A program made the position numbers and the translations under genes. A model generated the notes under the pieces. The model searched no databases and was not told where the DNA came from. It saw only the letters and a program-made list of their open reading frames with translations. Positions 53,999-64,000 of a stretch of 64,000 bases of DNA are shown in pieces. Where the stretch lies: the NCBI GenBank assembly GCA_965207885.1, contig OZ242311.1:4256001-4320000 (forward strand). The letters run 5' to 3'. This stretch comes from Candidatus Latescibacterota bacterium. Its GTDB lineage: Bacteria; Latescibacterota; UBA2968. Within the stretch, counting starts at the first letter, position 1. Every line of letters starts with the position of its first letter.

Positions 53999-54784
53999 AT
54001 GTCCAACTTGGAGCAACTTATCAACATCATGGCGCAATTGAGAGGGCCTGCGGGCTGCCCGTGGGACAAAGAGCAAACGCACCAGAGTCTGAAACCCTAT
54101 CTCATCGAAGAAGCCTATGAACTCCTCGAGGCGATTGACTGCAATGACGATGGCGAAATCAAAGAAGAACTGGGCGACCTCTTGCTACAAGTCGTCTTTC
54201 ACGCGCAAATCGCCAGTGAAGAAAACCGATTTACCATAGACGATGTAGCCGAAGCCATCGCCGACAAACTCATCCGTCGTCATCCGCATGTTTTTGGCGA
54301 CACACAAGCCGACACACCCGACGAAGTCATCAAAAATTGGGAAGCCATCAAAGCCGAAGAAAAACCCAACAAAAAAGCCTCCCTGCTCGACGGAGTGCCA
54401 CAACACTTGCCGGCACTATTGAAAGCGCGCAGGCTCCAGGAAAAAGCTGCACGGGTGGGATTTGAATGGGAACACATAGCGGATGTGGCTCAAAAAGTAA
54501 GGGAAGAAACAGAAGAATTGATGCACGCACGAGAAACCGGCGCAACAGAAAAAATTCAAGAAGAATTTGGTGACTTGCTATTTGCCCTGGTCAATCTCGC
54601 TCGATTTCTCCAAATATGCCCTGAAGAAGCACTCATACAAACCAACAGAAAATTTCAATCGCGCTTCCAGTACATCGAAACCGAACTGTGCAAGCAGGGC
54701 AAAACACCTGATGACGCTACGCTTGAAGAAATGGACGCGCTGTGGGAAGCCGCAAAAAAAGAGAATCAGCCCCAAAAATCGTAG
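53999..54784 (+). CDS. mazG: Nucleoside triphosphate pyrophosphohydrolase
   Basis: GCPWDKEQT, EELGDLLLQVVFH and EEFGDLLF motifs. Confidence 0.95.
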   Translation: MSNLEQLINIMAQLRGPAGCPWDKEQTHQSLKPYLIEEAYELLEAIDCNDDGEIKEELGDLLLQVVFHAQIASEENRFTIDDVAEAIADKLIRRHPHVFGDTQADTPDEVIKNWEAIKAEEKPNKKASLLDGVPQHLPALLKARRLQEKAARVGFEWEHIADVAQKVREETEELMHARETGATEKIQEEFGDLLFALVNLARFLQICPEEALIQTNRKFQSRFQYIETELCKQGKTPDDATLEEMDALWEAAKKENQPQKS

Positions 54785-55278
54785 TGTGCAGACAATTCTA
54801 AAACGGGAATAGGAGCCGATTCCCAATCGTCAATCCAGCAAATAATGCTATCACATGCCATATAATCGAGATTTTCGCGCTCGAAATCACTGCTGCGCAA
54901 CACGGCGTGCGCTCGAACCGGCAATTCATTACTCGACAAAATATAATTGGGAAAAGCCTCCTGGGATTTGAGCACCTCAAATCCCAACTTGTCGTAAACC
55001 CGAATAAACAACTCGCGGACATTGGTCGCATTTCGCACAGCCGGATACGTCAAAAGTAGTTCTTGCTTAACAGGAGCCAGTTGTTTTTCAATAACATCAA
55101 GCGTACTCTGAGGAACCGTAACCGACTTTGCATTTTTGCGCTCCAATTCGGCTTCGACCCGCTTGAGAGCCAATTCTGCGACCTCTTTGGAATCGCTAAT
55201 TGACTTCCGCACGCGCTTGCCCTCTTCATCGTAATACCCGATCCACCACTTCTTTCCCCGCTGATAAAGCCACGCCAT
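54766..55278 (-). CDS. Integrase arm-type DNA-binding domain fused to a degenerate PD-(D/E)XK-like domain
   Basis: N-terminal LYQRGKKWWIGYYDEEGKRVRKS...KEVAELAL; C-terminal LGFEVLKSQEAFPN...S.DF...CDSIICWIDDW...PIPVLEL. Confidence 0.6.
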   Translation of the reverse strand: MAWLYQRGKKWWIGYYDEEGKRVRKSISDSKEVAELALKRVEAELERKNAKSVTVPQSTLDVIEKQLAPVKQELLLTYPAVRNATNVRELFIRVYDKLGFEVLKSQEAFPNYILSSNELPVRAHAVLRSSDFERENLDYMACDSIICWIDDWESAPIPVLELSAHYDFWG

Positions 55279-55960: not shown

Positions 55961-55984
55961 ATATATGTCATATTTGACATATAT
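55961..55984. promoter_or_regulatory. Palindromic operator of the HigBA-type TA operon
   Basis: ATATATGTCA-tatt-TGACATATAT, a perfect 10-bp inverted repeat just upstream of the toxin ATG. Confidence 0.7.
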
Positions 55985-55991
55985 TTCTTTT

Positions 55992-56327
55992 ATGAGTCCT
56001 CATGACAAACCTCTGGTATGGCTTCACGGACAAATCAAAACGCCTCCATTTTCTCCAGCAGCGAGAATTGAAGCAGGTTTTCTTCTGCGTAGTCTCCAAG
56101 CTGGTGAACTGCTTTCAATGCCCCAGGCCAGACCAATGCCCTCTATTGGAAGGCATTGTTACGAATTGAGAGTTCGAGATCAGAATGAGACCTGGCGAAT
56201 CATCTATCGCATTGATTCGGATGCCATCGTCATAGCAGAAGTTTTCACAAAAAGGACTCGTCAGACGCCCAAAAGAATCATTGATATTTGTAAAAGACGG
56301 CTACAACACTACGATTCGATAGGATGA
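55992..56327 (+). CDS. RelE/ParE (HigB/Gp49-like) toxin
   Basis: KPLVWLHG..KTPPFS, CYELRV, WRIIYR and FTKRTRQTP motifs. Confidence 0.88.
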   Translation: MSPHDKPLVWLHGQIKTPPFSPAARIEAGFLLRSLQAGELLSMPQARPMPSIGRHCYELRVRDQNETWRIIYRIDSDAIVIAEVFTKRTRQTPKRIIDICKRRLQHYDSIG

Positions 56328-56330
56328 CTC

Positions 56331-56645
56331 ATGAATACAAAAAAGAAAAAACTTCTCGAGGCTGCCGGATGGCGTGTGGGTTCAACAGACGATTTTCTGG
56401 ATCTGACCGACGAAGAAGCCGCTTACATTGATCTCAAAATCACGTTGAGCAAGAAAGTGCGTCAATGCCGTGAGCGAGAAAATTTGACCCAAACACAATT
56501 GGCCAAATATCTCAAATCCAGTCAATCTCGTGTTGCCAAAATCGAAGCGGGCGATCCCTCTGTTTCTGTAGATCTATTAATTCGATCCCTCTTCGCGCTT
56601 GGGGTCTCCAAATCCGAACTCGCCGAAATGCTCGTATCGCAATAG
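56331..56645 (+). CDS. XRE-family HTH antitoxin (HigA-like)
   Basis: LTQTQLAKYLKSSQSRVAKIEAGD. Confidence 0.88.
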   Translation: MNTKKKKLLEAAGWRVGSTDDFLDLTDEEAAYIDLKITLSKKVRQCRERENLTQTQLAKYLKSSQSRVAKIEAGDPSVSVDLLIRSLFALGVSKSELAEMLVSQ

Positions 56646-56780: not shown

Positions 56781-57110
56781 GTTTGCGTGCCGAACACGAC
56801 GCTTATTTACCGAAAGCATCGACAAACAGCAGAAAATCGCCAATCCCTATTGTGCCATCCCCATCCAGATCAAACCGCGCATCATATCCCGCATCGCCAC
56901 GACTTAATCCGAACCGGGTTGCAAACAGCAGAAAATCGCTAATGCCAACTGTCCCATCGCCATCAAAATCAGCCACTGGCGACTCCTCCGGAACACCAGT
57001 GACCACAGCATCGATGCCCACATCTGCCACTGTTAGAGGACCTCCGCCTTTCTCCTGAACTGGAAACTCTACGCAACCAATCGTCTTTCGCTCTCCGCGA
57101 GAATTTCCTA

Positions 57111-58047
57111 GGTAGTGTCTGAAAAGTCGTAAAGTATGTATTTTAGTTGCAGCATACGCCCTAAACCAAGGAGTATGATATGCAACGGAGATATGAACTG
57201 CGCGACGAGGCTTGGCATCTGATCCAAGACCTGTTCCCACCGCCGAAGAAGATGGGTCGTCCCCGTCGGGATGATCGTACATTATTCAACGGGATCTTCT
57301 GGATATTGTGTTCAGGTGCAGCTTGGCGCGACCTGCCAGAACGATATGGTCCTTGGCAGACAGCCTTTGACCGATTCTGCAAATGGAAACAGGATGGCAC
57401 CTTTGATCGCATTGTAGAAAAGCTACATCTCAAATTGGGTGAAGATGGTCTTTTAGATTATGCGACCTGGATGATGGATGCAACCCATATTCGAGCCACA
57501 CAAGCCGCGGCAGGAGCGAAAAAAAAAGGGCAAAAAGGGTGAAGAAGAGCCCCCAGATCACGCTTTAGGACGCTCTCGTGGCGGTTTGACCACGAAAATC
57601 CATCTTCTTTGCGATGCAGTCGGGCATCCTTTAGCAGTGGATCTTCTCCCTGGTAACCAGTCAGAATCCACACAGGCTGAAAGGCTACTGTCAAAGGTAT
57701 GCATACCCACCAAACGAGGGCGTCCAAGAAACCGACCCAAGTATCTGGTAGCTGATAAATCTTATGATGTCTCACGCATCAGAGTCTATCTACGCAAACG
57801 GGGTATCAAGGCTGCTATCCCAAACAAGGCGATTCCCAAAGGCAGAAAACGGCGTAAGAGAGGACCACGGCCTAAGTGTGATAAAAGATTATATGCCAAA
57901 CGCAATATCGTGGAGCGTCTCTTTGGTTGGCTTAAACACTGCCGACGGATTGTGACCCGATTTGAAAAAAAGGCGACTCATTTTCTCACTATGGTCAAGC
58001 TGGCCTGTATCAGACAACTCTTCAAAGCTTACTTTTCAGACACTACC
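57111..58047 (+). mobile_element. IS5-family insertion sequence (IS427-like group), 937 bp
   Basis: Perfect 17-bp TIRs GGTAGTGTCTGAAAAGT / ACTTTTCAGACACTACC; TA target duplication at 57109-10 and 58048-49. Confidence 0.95.
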
Positions 58048-58050
58048 TAA
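57180..58050 (+). CDS. IS5-family DDE transposase in two frames
   Basis: orfA 57180-57542 (GAAWRDLPERYGPWQT, MMDAT); orfB GRSRGGLTTKIH, ADKSYD, RNIVERLF; A9 run at about 57519-57527 at the junction (probable programmed frameshift). Confidence 0.9.
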
Positions 58051-59689
58051 GATATCGGTTGTTATATCTGGATAATACCCCTCTGCATTGCCAATCAGAC
58101 CACTGGATTCTCCCGGAGCAACAACCCCATTGGGCAGATAATCCACATCGATCCGCTCAACCTTTATCCCATCCCGATCAGGCATACCCAACTCGCCATC
58201 GGTGATATTCCCTTCCCAGGTGAAATTGACTGGCTCATCGTCCTGCACGAGTTCCACAGTCCTCTCAGATCTCTCCATCACAAAAGCATTATTCGCAATT
58301 ACACAATCCTTAGGTGCTATACCGTTGGGATACAGTCTGTGATTACGCCCTACAACCATCGCCGGACTACATCCCATAAATGTATTAAACGCGATCAGCG
58401 CGCGCTCCACCTGCACATAGTGCTTATCCATCGTCCCATCCCTTATACACACACCAAACGCATTGAGCGAGCGGAACAGATTGTTGACAACAACCTGATC
58501 CGTTCCCTGCAAGCACACACCGCCAGCACGTAGTTCACCCTCACCAAAAAAGAAATTCTCAGACACCACATTGCCATGCCCACTCCGAAGCGTCAGCGCC
58601 CCCCGGCAATCGCGAAACGTATTTCTACGGAGAATATTGCCATTGGACTTCACAGAAATGATCTCCGACTCACCGTTACAACGCTCGAAGAGATTGTACT
58701 CAATCACTGTCTCACAATCGCCCGGCTCAGGATCTTTAGGAGCACCCTCTGTAATCAGCTGAATCGTCTCGTACCCATTGTCTCCCCTGCCCTCTGGAAT
58801 ATCGACGAAGTGGTTATGATGGATGTGATGCCTCTCACCCTGATTGAAAACCTCAAACTGAATCAACTGGCAACCACTCATCTCAACGAGATTATTGGTC
58901 TTATTCTCAAATCGGCAACGCTCAATCTCCCGGCTCAGTGCACTGACGCGTATCCACTTGCCAACCTGAACATCGGTCATCACGCAGCGACTTATGCGAC
59001 AACCTCGACCGCGAATTTTTATGCTGCCCTTCTCCTCAAAGCGAAGACCTACGAGATTAATGTAATCTCCCTTTATTGATATGGGACCCTGTATAACGGC
59101 TTTCCCGATGTTTTTTGCCTGAATTGTGATGGGATGAGTAGTGGTACCCTTTGCTACCAACTCGCACACATCGCCATCATATACTCCGTCATCTAAGGTG
59201 ATTGTGTCGCCCGCCCGCGCGTCAGATACCCGGTGTTTAAGATCGGATAATGTCATAATTCCCGTGCGAAAGGTCAACGGTGGCACCGACGCATGCCCTA
59301 TGAGTAATACCTCGACCGTATTTTCTTTTGATGATCCCAATGTCAAGGTTGTCTGTGCTCTACCTACGGTATTGGTAGTGTCAGTGACGGTACTGAGTGA
59401 GCCACCACCTGAGGTGACGGTAAAAGACACCGGCACACCAGCAAATGTTTTATCCCTCTGATCCTGCACTTCCACAACAAATGGGGTCGCCAAAGCCGCA
59501 CCAGGCGTGCCATCCTGCACTTGCCCAGAGACTATGACCAACCTCGTCGGCGTGCGGGAATCGAAGCTCACGCTGACTCCGCGACTCTGAAGGGCGGGAA
59601 TGTGTGTATTGAGGGAAGGATAGCTCAGAGGGTTGCCTATCAAATAGACCTCGTCGCCATTTCCCAATCCCATGTTTACTACCAATGGC

Positions 59690-60110
59690 GAGATGTCCAG
59701 AATGTTGTTTCTATGAAGCTCCAGCTTTGTCAGACCAGTTAAGTTAGAAAGCGGAGACGCATCCGAAATACTGTTGCCTCGTAGCTTTAGATGGATCAGA
59801 TGGATTAAGCCCGAAAGGTGCGAAAGATCTGACATACTGTTCCGGCTAATATCCAGAAATGTCAGACGGGTTAAGTTAGAAAGCGGAGACGCATCCGAGA
59901 TTGAGTTGCGCTCAAGATCCAGAGATGTCAGACGGGTTAAGTTGGAAAGCGGAGATACGTTCGAGATCGAGTTGCTCTGGATATCCAGCAATGTCAAGCG
60001 AGTTAAGTTAGAAAGTGGAGATACATCCGAAATACTGTTGCCTGCAAGTTTTAGCTTTGTCAGGCTGGTTAAGCCCGACAGTGGCGAGAGGTTGAAGATG
60101 TCGTTGCTGT
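59690..60110 (-). repeat. 66-bp tandem repeats encoding internalin-type LRRs
   Basis: Repeated NSISD(A/V)SPLSNLTRLT units. Confidence 0.85.
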
Positions 60111-60423
60111 TGATATAATGACCACCCTCTCCCCACTCGCCACCGAGATAAAGATGGGTCAATCCGGTTGCATACTCAAGCCCGGTCAGGTTGTGGATAT
60201 TCGCATCCTGCGCGTCAATGCGCGTCAATGTCGCCATTTCCGCCCGGGTAATCGTCGCACCGCTTGCCTTGTCCAACGAGTCCTCAATGACAGCCCTCAG
60301 GTTCACATCGGGGATGGTTACGGTCTGGTTCTGCGCGCTGCTTTCGCCGCAGACGGCAAAGAAAATTAAAAGTATGGTAAAGACAGAGGATATATAACGG
60401 CAAAAAATCATAAATTTCCTCGC

Positions 60424-61236
60424 TCACTTTCTGTGGATGTCGTAGTACCGGAACCCGGCGGTGAGCCAGTAGCGATTCGCAGAGCGCAAGACCCTCGGTA
60501 AGCTGATCAACGAACCACCACGCAACACATGCCTATTGCAGTCTCCAAATATCCAGGCAGAACCATCTGTAGGTGCCCCCTCGTAATTCTCATTCCAACA
60601 ATCTTGCACCCACTCCCACACATTGCCATGCATATCGTAAACACCCCACGCATTCGCCTCGAACGATCCCACTGGCGCTGTCTGCTTATCGTCCCACTGA
60701 CTACCGCATCCATCACAATTGGCGCGGTTGACACCGATGCTGTCTCCCCAGCTATACGCTGTCTCTGTCCCTGCACGTGCCACATACTCCCACTCCGCTT
60801 CACTCAATAAACGATATGTTTTACCCGTCCTCTCAGACAACCAACGCACATAAGACTGCGCATCGTCCCAACTCACATTCACTACCGGACGATTTCCGCG
60901 GCCCCAGCTATCACTCGGAATATCCGGAATATAGTTTCCACAACCTCCTGCATCCATACAGGCATACCATTCGTCAAATGTCACCTCATATACACCCACC
61001 GCAAACTGGTAATCTATATGCACCCTATGCAGCGGCCTTTCATCAGAATGACCCCTCTCACGCGTGGGTGACCCCATCCTGAACGATCCCGATGGCACCA
61101 CCACCATCTTTGGGCATTCATCACAGTCTTGAAAAGTCTCTCCAGGTGAAGGTGCACTATTCCCGGTGTTCTGTTGTGACCATAGAGGAAGGCTCAGAAG
61201 AATTAATACACCTGTACAAATACAGTGACGATCCAT
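60424..61236 (-). CDS. Exported FGE-sulfatase (C-type lectin fold) protein, 3'-truncated; probable DGR target
   Basis: FQDCDECPKMVVVPSGSFRMGS, RLLSEAEWEY, DMHGNVWEW and RGGS motifs; ends before the canonical terminal GFR; SD AAGGAG. Confidence 0.85.
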   Translation of the reverse strand: MDRHCICTGVLILLSLPLWSQQNTGNSAPSPGETFQDCDECPKMVVVPSGSFRMGSPTRERGHSDERPLHRVHIDYQFAVGVYEVTFDEWYACMDAGGCGNYIPDIPSDSWGRGNRPVVNVSWDDAQSYVRWLSERTGKTYRLLSEAEWEYVARAGTETAYSWGDSIGVNRANCDGCGSQWDDKQTAPVGSFEANAWGVYDMHGNVWEWVQDCWNENYEGAPTDGSAWIFGDCNRHVLRGGSLISLPRVLRSANRYWLTAGFRYYDIHRK

Positions 61237-61311
61237 CTTGGCTCTCCTTTCATCAATTCCCCCTGCTATAGAAGATTCTTGGCCTCTAAAAAATGTCAAG
61301 TATCACCTCTG

Positions 61312-62376
61312 CTATCTGCCCTGTATATAGGTCACTTCATATATGATGGTCCCTTCCTCATCGCGGCTGACCCATTTTCCGTGCCGCTTGCCATCCGCAA
61401 ATGGGCCTTCGGATGTGCCTCCATCATAAGAAGGAAAGCTCCAGTGACCGTGCCGCTTGCCGTTCACATAAGGGCCTTTAGCTATGTGAGTTCCCCACTC
61501 AATCTCAACCCATTGTCCGTGCTTTTTTCCGTTCACATAGGAGCCGCCCCCTGTGCGACCCTCCGGGCTACGTTCGACCCATTGTCCGTGCTTCTCGCCA
61601 TCCACGTACGGGCCTTCGAATACGATATGCCTGAACCTCCGCATTTGCTGGACCCAATGCCCGTGCCGCTTGCCGTTCACGTACGGGCCTTTCTCGTCAT
61701 TGAACTTATAAAAGTACCAATAATAGCGATAGATCCATTCTCCGTGTTTCTTACCATCCACATAAAGGCCTTGCCTTACGATCTCGTCGAGGGGCATTTC
61801 GATCCAATGTCCGTACCGTTTGCCATCCCGCAAGTATCCCATTTCTTCACCTTTGTCGGTATAGAGAGTGCCGTGAAAAATAGCAACGGTCTTGAGTGTT
61901 CCCCTTCCCTGGGCAAAACCATCGGAACACTCACCCGACCAGGCCATGATCTCACCCTCTCTGAGATTATCGTTCCAGACATAGCATTTGGGGTGATTGA
62001 TCAACTCCATCCAGCAACCCGCACCTGACGGTTTTCCTTCACACGTTCCATCAGCTTTGATAATTTCGTTGTCGAACACGTCCTCGGAATCTGCTGGCGT
62101 TTCGTCACCGTCAGCACTATGCTGCGCCTTTATATATCCCTCAACCTCACGCATCAGTTCCAGAGCTTCTTTTGTCAGCACTGCGCCGCGTTCTTTTTTT
62201 AACGCTTCGAGCTTTTTCAGCACTCTCAATGTACCCCCGTAGTCGCCTTTGCCGTACAGTTCTTTTGCCAGATTCAGATAATCGCCCCATTGGGCACGTG
62301 GCGGAAATCCGGCTGTTGCAACTGTGAAGAATCCCAACATTACTGCAATAAAAAAGTTCCTGACTACTTCACGCAT
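61312..62376 (-). CDS. Exported MORN-variant/YwqK-like repeat protein
   Basis: Signal peptide; repeated (E/K)GPYV(N/D)GK(R/K)HGxW units. Confidence 0.75.
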   Translation of the reverse strand: MREVVRNFFIAVMLGFFTVATAGFPPRAQWGDYLNLAKELYGKGDYGGTLRVLKKLEALKKERGAVLTKEALELMREVEGYIKAQHSADGDETPADSEDVFDNEIIKADGTCEGKPSGAGCWMELINHPKCYVWNDNLREGEIMAWSGECSDGFAQGRGTLKTVAIFHGTLYTDKGEEMGYLRDGKRYGHWIEMPLDEIVRQGLYVDGKKHGEWIYRYYWYFYKFNDEKGPYVNGKRHGHWVQQMRRFRHIVFEGPYVDGEKHGQWVERSPEGRTGGGSYVNGKKHGQWVEIEWGTHIAKGPYVNGKRHGHWSFPSYDGGTSEGPFADGKRHGKWVSRDEEGTIIYEVTYIQGR

Positions 62377-62463: not shown

Positions 62464-64000
62464 TTATTTACCGAAAGCATCGACAAACAGCAGAAAATCG
62501 CCAATCCCTATTGTGCCATCCCCATCCAGATCAAACCGCGCATCATATCTCGCATCGCCACGACTTAATCCGAACCGGGTTGCAAACAGCAAAAAATCGC
62601 TAATGCCAACTGTCCCATCGCCATCAAAATCGGCCGTTGGAGACGCCTCCGGAACACCAGTGACCACAGCATCGATGCCCACATCTGACACTGTTAGAGG
62701 ACCTCCGCCTTTCTCCTGAACTGGAAACTCTACGCAACCAATCGTCTTTCGCTCTCCGCGAGAATTTCCTAAAATATCGGTTGTTATATCTGGATAATGT
62801 CCCTCTGCATTGCCAATCAAACCACTGGACTCTGCCGCACAACAACCCCATTGGGCAGATAATCCACATCCACCTTAGCAATTCTTATCCCATCCCGATC
62901 AGGCATACCCAAATCCCCATCCGTCACATTCCCCTCCCACATCCAATCCACTGGCTCATCGTCCTGCACCAGCCGCACAGTCCTATCGGATCCCACAAAA
63001 GCATTATTCGCAACCACGCAATCCTCAGGTGCTATACCGTTGGGATGCAGTGGGTGATTTAGCCCCACATCCATCGCCGGACTACATCCCACAAACGTAT
63101 TAAACGCAATCAGCGCGCGCTCCACCCGCACATAGAGATCATCCATCGTCCCATCCCTCACACCCACGCCAGACGCATTGAGCGAGTGGAACAGATTGTT
63201 GACAACAACCTGATCTGTCCCTTGCAAGCGCACACCGCCAGCCCGGCGTTCGCCCTCGCCAAAAAAGAAATTCTCAGACACCACATTGCCATGCCCACTC
63301 CGAAGCGTCAGCGCCCCTCGGCAATCGCGAAACGTATTCCTGCGGAGCGTATTGCCATTGGACTTCACAGAGATAATCTCCGACTCCCCACTACAGCGCT
63401 CAAAAAGGTTGTATTCGATTAGGGTTCCAGAGTGGCCCGGTTCCGGGTTCCAAGGATTTCCCTTTATAACAAGTTGAAGCGTTTCATAGCCATTGCCCAA
63501 CTTGCCCTCTGGAATATCGACGAAGTGGTTGTGGTGGATGTGGTGGTGTTCTCCCTTGTCTAGCACGACGATTCGCATCAATTGGTGGTCAATGTACCCC
63601 TCCGCAACATGGGGAATGTCGAACCTACCGCCCTCATGATCGGTGTTGTTGGTCTTGTTCTCGAATCGGCAGTAATCAATTTCGATTTGCTGACTTTCCG
63701 GCAATACGTCCATCCAAATGCCTACCTGAACGTCTGTCATTACACAGCGACTGATGCGACAACCTCGACCGCGAATTTTTATACTGCCCTTCTCCTCAAA
63801 GCGAAGACCTACGAGATTAATGTAATCTCCCTTTATTGATATGGGACCCTGGATAACGGCTTTCCCGATGTTCTTCGCCTGAATTGTGATGGGATGGGCC
63901 GCGCTCCCCTTTGCTACCAACTCGCACACATCGCCGTCATATACTCCGTCATCTAAGGTGATTGTGTCGCCAGGACGCGCGTCAGATACCCGGTTTTCAA
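62464..64000 (-). pseudogene. Second chondroitinase-B/PL6-like + EF-hand gene (5' end outside window), frameshifted near the 3' end
   Basis: Highly similar to the 56803-59240 part of the first copy. One base shorter near 62830 (ccactgga-10nt-caacaac versus 11 nt), giving a stop at 62817; the EF-hand part continues in another frame to 62464. Confidence 0.8.

Follow-up and report, generated by a model that had tools for sequence, protein, structure and literature searches.

A truncated C-type-lectin-fold gene in a Latescibacterota genome is likely a fossil target of a lost DGR

Bordetella phage BPP-1 carries a diversity-generating retroelement (DGR) with the gene order avd, template repeat (TR), reverse transcriptase (RT), and its target is a phage tail fibre. 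In this system a variable region (VR) is rewritten from the TR with A-to-N changes in dependence on 3' cis elements (Guo et al. 2011, PMC3240598), and the IMH is described as essential in that paper and in PMC5758913, the latter adding that an IMH can be predicted in nearly all DGRs. PMC5758913 describes the chromosomal DGR of Treponema denticola as having several targets, some of them not adjacent to the cassette, with a C-terminal VR in an FGE-type C-type-lectin (CLec) fold such as that of TvpA (2y3c). In Thiohalocapsa PB-PSB1, as presented by Doré et al. 2024 (PMC10907252), CLec targets stand by missing or pseudogenised RT and TR and have been shaped by duplications and IS elements, and one complete locus per class is kept in the genome. 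Dispersed CLec paralogs of cyanobacteria, for example all3226 of Nostoc PCC 7120, carry VR remnants with no RT nearby in Vallota-Eastman et al. 2020 (PMC7517822), where the genomes were chosen for having DGRs and where it has already been proposed that the machinery is removed after selection of a variant. Degenerate DGR loci and dispersed VR remnants are already on record in PMC10907252 and PMC7517822, and the gene described here joins them. We found no report in the open literature on DGRs of sponge symbionts or Latescibacterota; PMC11661182 mentions neither sponge nor Latescibacterota.

The window, by which we mean the whole stretch of 64,000 nucleotides that was analysed, comes from a Candidatus Latescibacterota bacterium (assembly GCA_965207885.1, contig OZ242311.1, positions 4,256,001 to 4,320,000). 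This genome, here called G000, is assembled as a single contig of 6.23 Mb and is 97% complete. The gene of interest and its surroundings comprise the following features.

54008..55278, both strands: conserved left flank of the island, formed by mazG on the plus strand (MazG, E 3.1e-41) and a convergent 170-aa gene on the minus strand
57106..58050, plus strand: IS4/IS5-type insertion sequence (DUF4096 and DDE_Tnp_1), of which the genome has over 25 near-identical copies
58036..60411, minus strand: second copy of a gene with LRR, Big_1 and chondroitinase-B-like parts (Pfam), its end broken by the IS5-type element and its leader the donor of the foreign tail
60424..61236, minus strand: FGE-sulfatase/C-type-lectin-fold gene, 3'-truncated, 270 aa from the ATG at 61236
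60424..60442, minus strand: junction and foreign tail IHRK-stop, matched to the leader of the other LRR/chondroitinase copy, in place of the terminal GFRVAR codons, the predicted IMH and the downstream element
60442..60522, minus strand: VR, 27 unambiguous codons from RGGS on, by comparison with the TR of the congener G016
61177..61236, minus strand: likely signal peptide of about 20 residues with a hydrophobic core, judged by eye from the translation
61312..62376, minus strand: upstream repeat protein, translated frame with no Pfam match
62464..64000, minus strand: dockerin-like tail and 3' part of the first LRR/chondroitinase copy, which continues beyond the window to G000:4321171

The protein matches the Pfam FGE-sulfatase family (PF03781, E 2.8e-56). 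Its nearest solved sequence is PvdO (5hha, E 8.7e-53), TvpA (2y3c) matches at E 5.7e-09, and these matches place the VR on a CLec/FGE fold; the FGE structures align to residues ~103-245 only. We take FGE catalysis to need two active-site cysteines after RGGS, and the window translation has no Cys after RGGS. The score against the NCBIfam model for PvdO (dihydropyoverdine dehydrogenase, NF051459) is 219.7 bits with a cut-off of 500. Translation likely starts at the ATG at 61236, which has AGGAG upstream, and not at the TTG at 61299. Judged from the signal peptide the protein is putatively exported, and this peptide together with the homology to TvpA predicts that its former role was that of a secreted binder. 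The cluster of host-interaction surface genes in which the original prediction placed the gene is putative and follows from the domain names of the neighbours. Re-reading the DNA gave exactly the codons that had been listed after RGGS and confirmed that RGGSL has an L at a position where W reaches at least 90% conservation across 47 aligned relatives, that the frame ends in DIHRK-stop and that the terminal GFR is absent; the distance to the next gene, given before as 13 bp, is 12 bases between the stop and the next ATG. A chance G-F-R lies inside the VR at codons 23-25.

The TR used for comparison is that of G016, a congener from the same genus of Latescibacterota, and is a non-cognate template. 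The window VR differs from it at 18 of 28 adenines, compared with 8 of 53 non-adenine bases (Fisher p=1.2e-5). Of the non-A differences, seven are third-position or synonymous and one changes W to L; because of these mismatches the G016 TR must be a relative of the cognate template and not the template itself. The excess of NNC codons pointed out in the original prediction is real and beyond chance. Among the first 27 VR codons, 8 of the 9 that are AAC or AAT in the template end in C, compared with 13.9% of the codons in the body (binomial p=1e-6, or 0.0014 with an assumed background of 35%), and all 9 end in a pyrimidine, compared with 47.9% (p=0.0013). The proposed derivation of TTA, TGG and GCC from AAA, AGG and ACC agrees with the G016 template at those codons. 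At the 28 TR adenines the window VR has A 10, T 11, G 6 and C 1; the same count is A 302, T 192, G 177 and C 57 in orphan tails of the genus and A 102, T 51, G 58 and C 13 in the VRs of G016 itself. This low share of C matches the in vitro spectrum of bRT-Avd (10.1101/2020.04.29.068544). When the window gene is compared with its syntenic counterpart in G008, 20 of 26 differences in the VR fall at TR adenines and codon positions 1/2/3 account for 12/8/6 of them, whereas the differences in the body are third-position heavy (28/23/65). The last two codons of the VR as originally listed, GAC ATC, overlap the junction and possibly come from the joined DNA.

Similar tails occur across the genus. Ten genomes in which no intact cassette of this lineage is present, unlike the DGR-bearing genomes chosen for the Nostoc-type paralogs, contain 26 VR-type tails, a number that covers tails of canonical length from the fetched loci with other lengths and the conserved GAWYLEG family set aside. 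In these 26 tails, which are akin to one another so that pooled counts are not independent and overstate independence, mean variation is 0.50 at TR-adenine columns and 0.09 elsewhere, 95.8% of the template-AAY codons end in C or T, and K, E, Q, M and W make up 3.2% of the residues. In a hand-picked subset of 19 tails that were found without the TR as query, 163 of 171 template-AAY codons end in C or T, compared with 56.7% in 16 gene bodies. Fourfold sites differ at 49 of 231 positions in the VR scaffold and at 235 of 493 in the last 80 body codons; such uniformity of silent sites in the scaffold would be expected if it was copied off a shared template. The window VR departs from the majority scaffold of the 25 other orphan tails at 3 of 53 non-A bases. 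Scaffold codon 14 tracks the genome, being TCT in 5/5 tails of G015 and 2/2 of G000 and TCG in 5/5 of G006. In a control family of five tails 80% of the codons at template-AAY positions end in a pyrimidine too, yet the residues are conserved, and a non-DGR paralog family from the same genomes shows few changes, often third-position.

Some tails depart from the canonical form. Those two codons short (L011 in G007, L009 in G008, L126 in G017 and G000:1259336) differ at adenine sites in their 5' halves but share one unchanging 3' half, which reads DKG[FI]IRSS.RGFR in three genomes; this suggests frozen alleles reshuffled through recombination or partial homing. A near-identical VR allele is found in two species without an intact cassette (L095 in G014, L103 in G005), consistent with inheritance of a frozen variant. 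An FGE gene of G017 (G017:C1:1180390-1180628, L134) has a tail that runs into the 3' flank of a TR and ends GFRVARTLVG as the TR does; it is likely a VR-TR fusion left behind by an RT deletion.

An intact cassette is present in the same genus, so that the absence of TR and RT even from close relatives, which the original prediction had named as evidence against itself, does not hold. In G016 an Avd gene (NF033474, 106 bits, cut-off 80) and a 361-aa RT with the TR directly behind it lie among kinase-FGE genes. The eight VRs of this genome differ from their own TR at 14-19 of 33 adenines and at 0-1 of 69 non-A bases, and one of them is 3.55 Mb away from the TR (G016:C1:668903, L108) with 0 of 69 non-A mismatches. 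The locus itself (G016:C1:4209688-4229462; L066:9688-17110, L067) is an intact multi-target DGR with seven local VRs in kinase-FGE genes and the order target-avd-RT-TR, which is not that of BPP-1. Trypsin/FHA genes adjoin it, and one target protein has two tandem FGE domains with a VR in both. Its kinase-FGE targets beside trypsin/FHA genes liken G016 to PB-PSB1, whereas the window gene encodes the domain unfused, behind a likely signal peptide. We looked for a strong homing hairpin after the VRs and found none; unlike in BPP-1, the DNA that follows the VRs of G016 forms no strong GC hairpin, at about -4 to -6 kcal/mol. A pyrimidine-rich element is found downstream of most intact VRs.

Among 53 genomes of the order, intact copies of the G016-type RT occur in G016 and G045, and remnants 83-93% identical to it persist in G006, G009, G015 and G029. 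The 21 genus genomes include one with an intact Avd-RT-TR, three with RT remnants, one of which lies in the island of the window; rewritten genes are found in at least 10 other genus genomes compared with 1 of 21 with an intact cassette. The internal deletions of the cassette differ in three genomes: in G006 (G006:C1:6092226-6092889, L120) pieces of Avd, RT and TR are fused, in G029 (G029:C1:560194-560470, L122) the whole TR is left with only the last 27-30 RT codons, and in G009 (G009:C2:3199608-3200238, L121) the whole Avd is left with the first ~100 RT codons. Loci in G041, G037, G028 and G025 with RT frames of 370-420 aa or broken RTs were set aside, having no tail of VR/TR type.

Searches of G000 returned neither a TR, nor a DGR RT, nor an Avd anywhere in its single contig, which speaks against the remote target that had been offered as an alternative to an orphan. 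An adenine-tolerant ungapped scan of both strands for a TR, together with a scan for AAY-rich windows, yielded FGE paralogs only, the best non-self candidate being a paralog VR 6.7 kb away with 15 of 87 non-A mismatches. The blastn search of the VR against its own genome that had been proposed as a check did bring up FGE paralogs and brought up no non-coding copy next to a DGR RT. With cassette DNA of five relatives as query, blastn in G000 gave FGE tails and short flanks only. An exact pattern for the TR start matched G016 alone among 21 genus genomes and had no match in G000. A profile search gave no Avd above the cut-off. The three RTs that G000 does encode (584, 604 and 604 aa) are 23-31% identical to the G016 RT and, with C-termini judged by eye, look like group II intron maturases. 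A pattern for the deduced cognate TR had 0 matches in metagenome and genome collections, and among 39 TR-like sequences taken from RT loci the closest fit still has 8 non-A mismatches to the window VR. Contigs of four sequencing runs show 0 differences over 60409-60879, these runs being at most two samples of one study, possibly the source, and contigs dropping rare variants. Small word shares were seen in 19 further runs, several of them labelled sponge metagenome, a label that is no evidence of habitat. In having no cassette, G000 differs from T. denticola, which has the cassette in its genome, and from PB-PSB1 with its complete loci.

The 3' end of the window gene is also unlike that of TvpA, being deleted within the VR. 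In the syntenic region of G008 the FGE gene is likewise followed by the LRR/chondroitinase gene and has a complete GFRVARSF end. The window gene lacks the GFRVAR codons that are homologous to the TR and also the pyrimidine-rich element conserved downstream, and with them the IMH as positioned by TR/VR homology. Bases 60442-60401 instead match, at 41 of 42 positions, the DNA ahead of the other LRR/chondroitinase copy (G000:4321202-4321161), and the first 300 bases of the two copies are 96-97% identical. The letters of the junction are seen in the contigs of the same four runs, with 30 letters on the short side. The simplest reading is that the junction would have formed by recombination at short microhomology. 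We dropped the idea that one deletion at the VR end also took Avd-RT-TR: in G008 the intact gene and the same LRR gene are 73 bases apart, and no cassette separates them. Ahead of the first LRR copy, an open frame of 96 residues that is single copy in the genome (G000:C1:4321187-4321474, L211:1187-1474) ends in the same IHRK-stop tail and has no Pfam or NCBIfam match; that this donor DNA is a fragment of a tyrosine integrase, as a motif had hinted, is not claimed.

AlphaFold models the intact G008 protein with pLDDT 91-95 over its last 20 residues and with strands at 242-244 and 246-249. For the window protein (mean pLDDT 84.3) confidence falls to 67 and then 33 at the end, residues 238-242 are below 50 and no terminal strand is predicted, in a comparison that rests on an alignment with a gap in this protein where the strand is missing. 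The G008 model matches TvpA (2y3c) at TM 0.72 and PvdO (5hha), which is closer by both sequence and fold, at TM 0.86.

The gene lies in a variable island bordered by mazG and the 170-aa gene on one side and an ornithine-cyclodeaminase-like gene on the other, with a sigma-54 propeller-sensor activator at the far end. The mazG gene is present in 19 of 20 congeners. At the site of the island in 19 congeners, 10 are nearly empty (<=1 kb), 6 are filled and in 3 the contig ends there; therefore the island comes and goes. Three of the filled sites (G008, G015, G020) hold the activator and VR-type FGE genes and three hold other inserts. In its G015 version the island contains an RT remnant 1.6 kb after a VR. 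A second FGE gene of the island, beyond the window at G000:4323199(-), has a complete VR tail, lacks its 5' half and is frameshifted. The second LRR/chondroitinase copy is 85.7% identical to the first over 2443 bases.

Taken with the intact gene of G008, the TR comparison and the missing cassette uphold the idea of an orphan DGR target cut at the 3' boundary of its VR. We hold it very probable that the window gene is a former target of the chromosomal DGR lineage of G016 and G045, orphaned by loss of the cassette and then truncated. An Avd-RT-TR cassette of this lineage would have copied template RNA with adenine errors into the tail of the gene. The cassette is now missing here and has decayed in several relatives; the RT remnant of G015 suggests that it once resided in or near the island. 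The 3' end, which we infer was cut later, is joined to the duplicated LRR/chondroitinase leader, presumably through recombination at short microhomology. Without its terminal strand the fold is predicted to be less stable, and with the 3' homing sequence gone even a returning DGR would be unable to re-target the gene. Since no cassette is in the genome and the 3' end is cut off, the gene is likely a non-diversifying pseudogene, that is, a fossil DGR target.

Other histories were weighed against this one. The VR could have been written by the DGR of another organism, the finished gene having arrived by horizontal transfer as island cargo in a lineage that never had the cassette. The coming and going of the island among congeners and an RT clade that crosses phyla at 72-80% identity fit such a transfer, which we nevertheless consider unlikely given that four genomes (G006, G009, G015, G029) retain RT remnants of the same clade, in one case within this island, and that scaffold variants at codon 14 track genomes; it would alter only the place of rewriting and leave the gene an orphan DGR product. 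It is very unlikely that the tail arose with no DGR at all, through the usual divergence of paralogs or through positive selection acting on a binding loop. The exact TR was not found, and the TR adenines fall on residues at the surface of the fold (Wu et al., PMC5758913, for TvpA), which could vary anyway and count to that extent against rewriting. Point mutation, however, would not hold a third-position C or T at 95% of changing codons, exclude K, E, Q, M and W, suppress C at adenine sites or leave the silent sites of the scaffold more uniform than the adjacent body, and the non-DGR paralogs change little and often at third positions; this explanation is largely refuted.

The gene might instead be a remote target that is still alive, with a DGR in a minor strain, or on a plasmid or phage missing from the assembly, acting on it in trans. 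Speaking for this are the G016 VR that is served across 3.55 Mb and an assembly that is 97% and not 100% complete, from which an unbinned plasmid or phage may be absent. The deleted 3' end held the IMH, which PMC5758913 and PMC3240598 call essential, the contigs of the four runs lack VR variants and the scaffold has a non-A change, W to L; we thus give this possibility very little credence. Hardest to credit is that the truncated protein still folds with the chance GFR of the VR replacing the lost strand. This G-F-R is followed by aromatic residues and lies 7 codons ahead of the motif that was lost, nothing else interrupts the frame and the core models well, but AlphaFold puts no terminal strand there, and an internal GFR also occurs in an intact G020 gene and is therefore a common product of those codons. 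Preferring the orphaned and truncated target, we regard the gene as mattering little alone because it is probably dead. It does illustrate that DGR products can be recognised in a genome with neither RT nor TR, where RT-centred surveys would miss them.

RTs 72-80% identical to that of G016 are found in records of Binatia, Dehalococcoidia, Alpha- and Gammaproteobacteria, Nitrospira and Acidobacteriota (L155-L185), in at least five phyla besides Latescibacterota and each with a near-identical TR layout. In a quick tree of close relatives that excluded L176 (an RT with 3 stops) and the 27-aa remnant of G029, 25 of these cross-phylum RTs group at SH-aLRT 99 and the Latescibacterota RTs (two intact and three remnants) form one clade, also at SH-aLRT 99. 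The same RT type in several phyla suggests horizontal spread. The wider point, which may be unreported, is a DGR RT clade common to six phyla. More tentatively, and with rather more doubt than conviction, we propose that a single DGR lineage circulates among unrelated bacteria (Latescibacterota, Binatota, Chloroflexota, Pseudomonadota, Nitrospirota and Acidobacteriota), which we presume to dwell in sponges, and acts in this genus by hit-and-run. It would write a secreted lectin-fold repertoire in sigma-54-linked islands of surface-protein genes and then be lost, as in 20 of 21 genomes, leaving behind many frozen alleles that are passed on from species to species by descent and shuffled through recombination; the window gene would count among the casualties of such a cycle. 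The intact multi-target DGR of G016 with its eight VRs and the cross-phylum RT clade are places to study ongoing diversification and ligands.

Further observations concern the neighbourhood of such genes. Orphan VR genes of several congeners often adjoin a sigma-54 propeller-sensor activator and short repeat-protein genes (L124, L128, L129, L130, L131, L196, L211). The two LRR/chondroitinase copies (58036-60411 and 62817-64000) are mosaic: within a single block of 150 bases their identity falls to 59%, one of them resembling G008 there and the other G006, which suggests segment exchange. The window also contains a toxin-antitoxin-like pair of Gp49/ParE-like and HTH genes at 55965-56645, and a 93% identical copy of this pair lies at G000:1263729-1264460 near a third FGE paralog.
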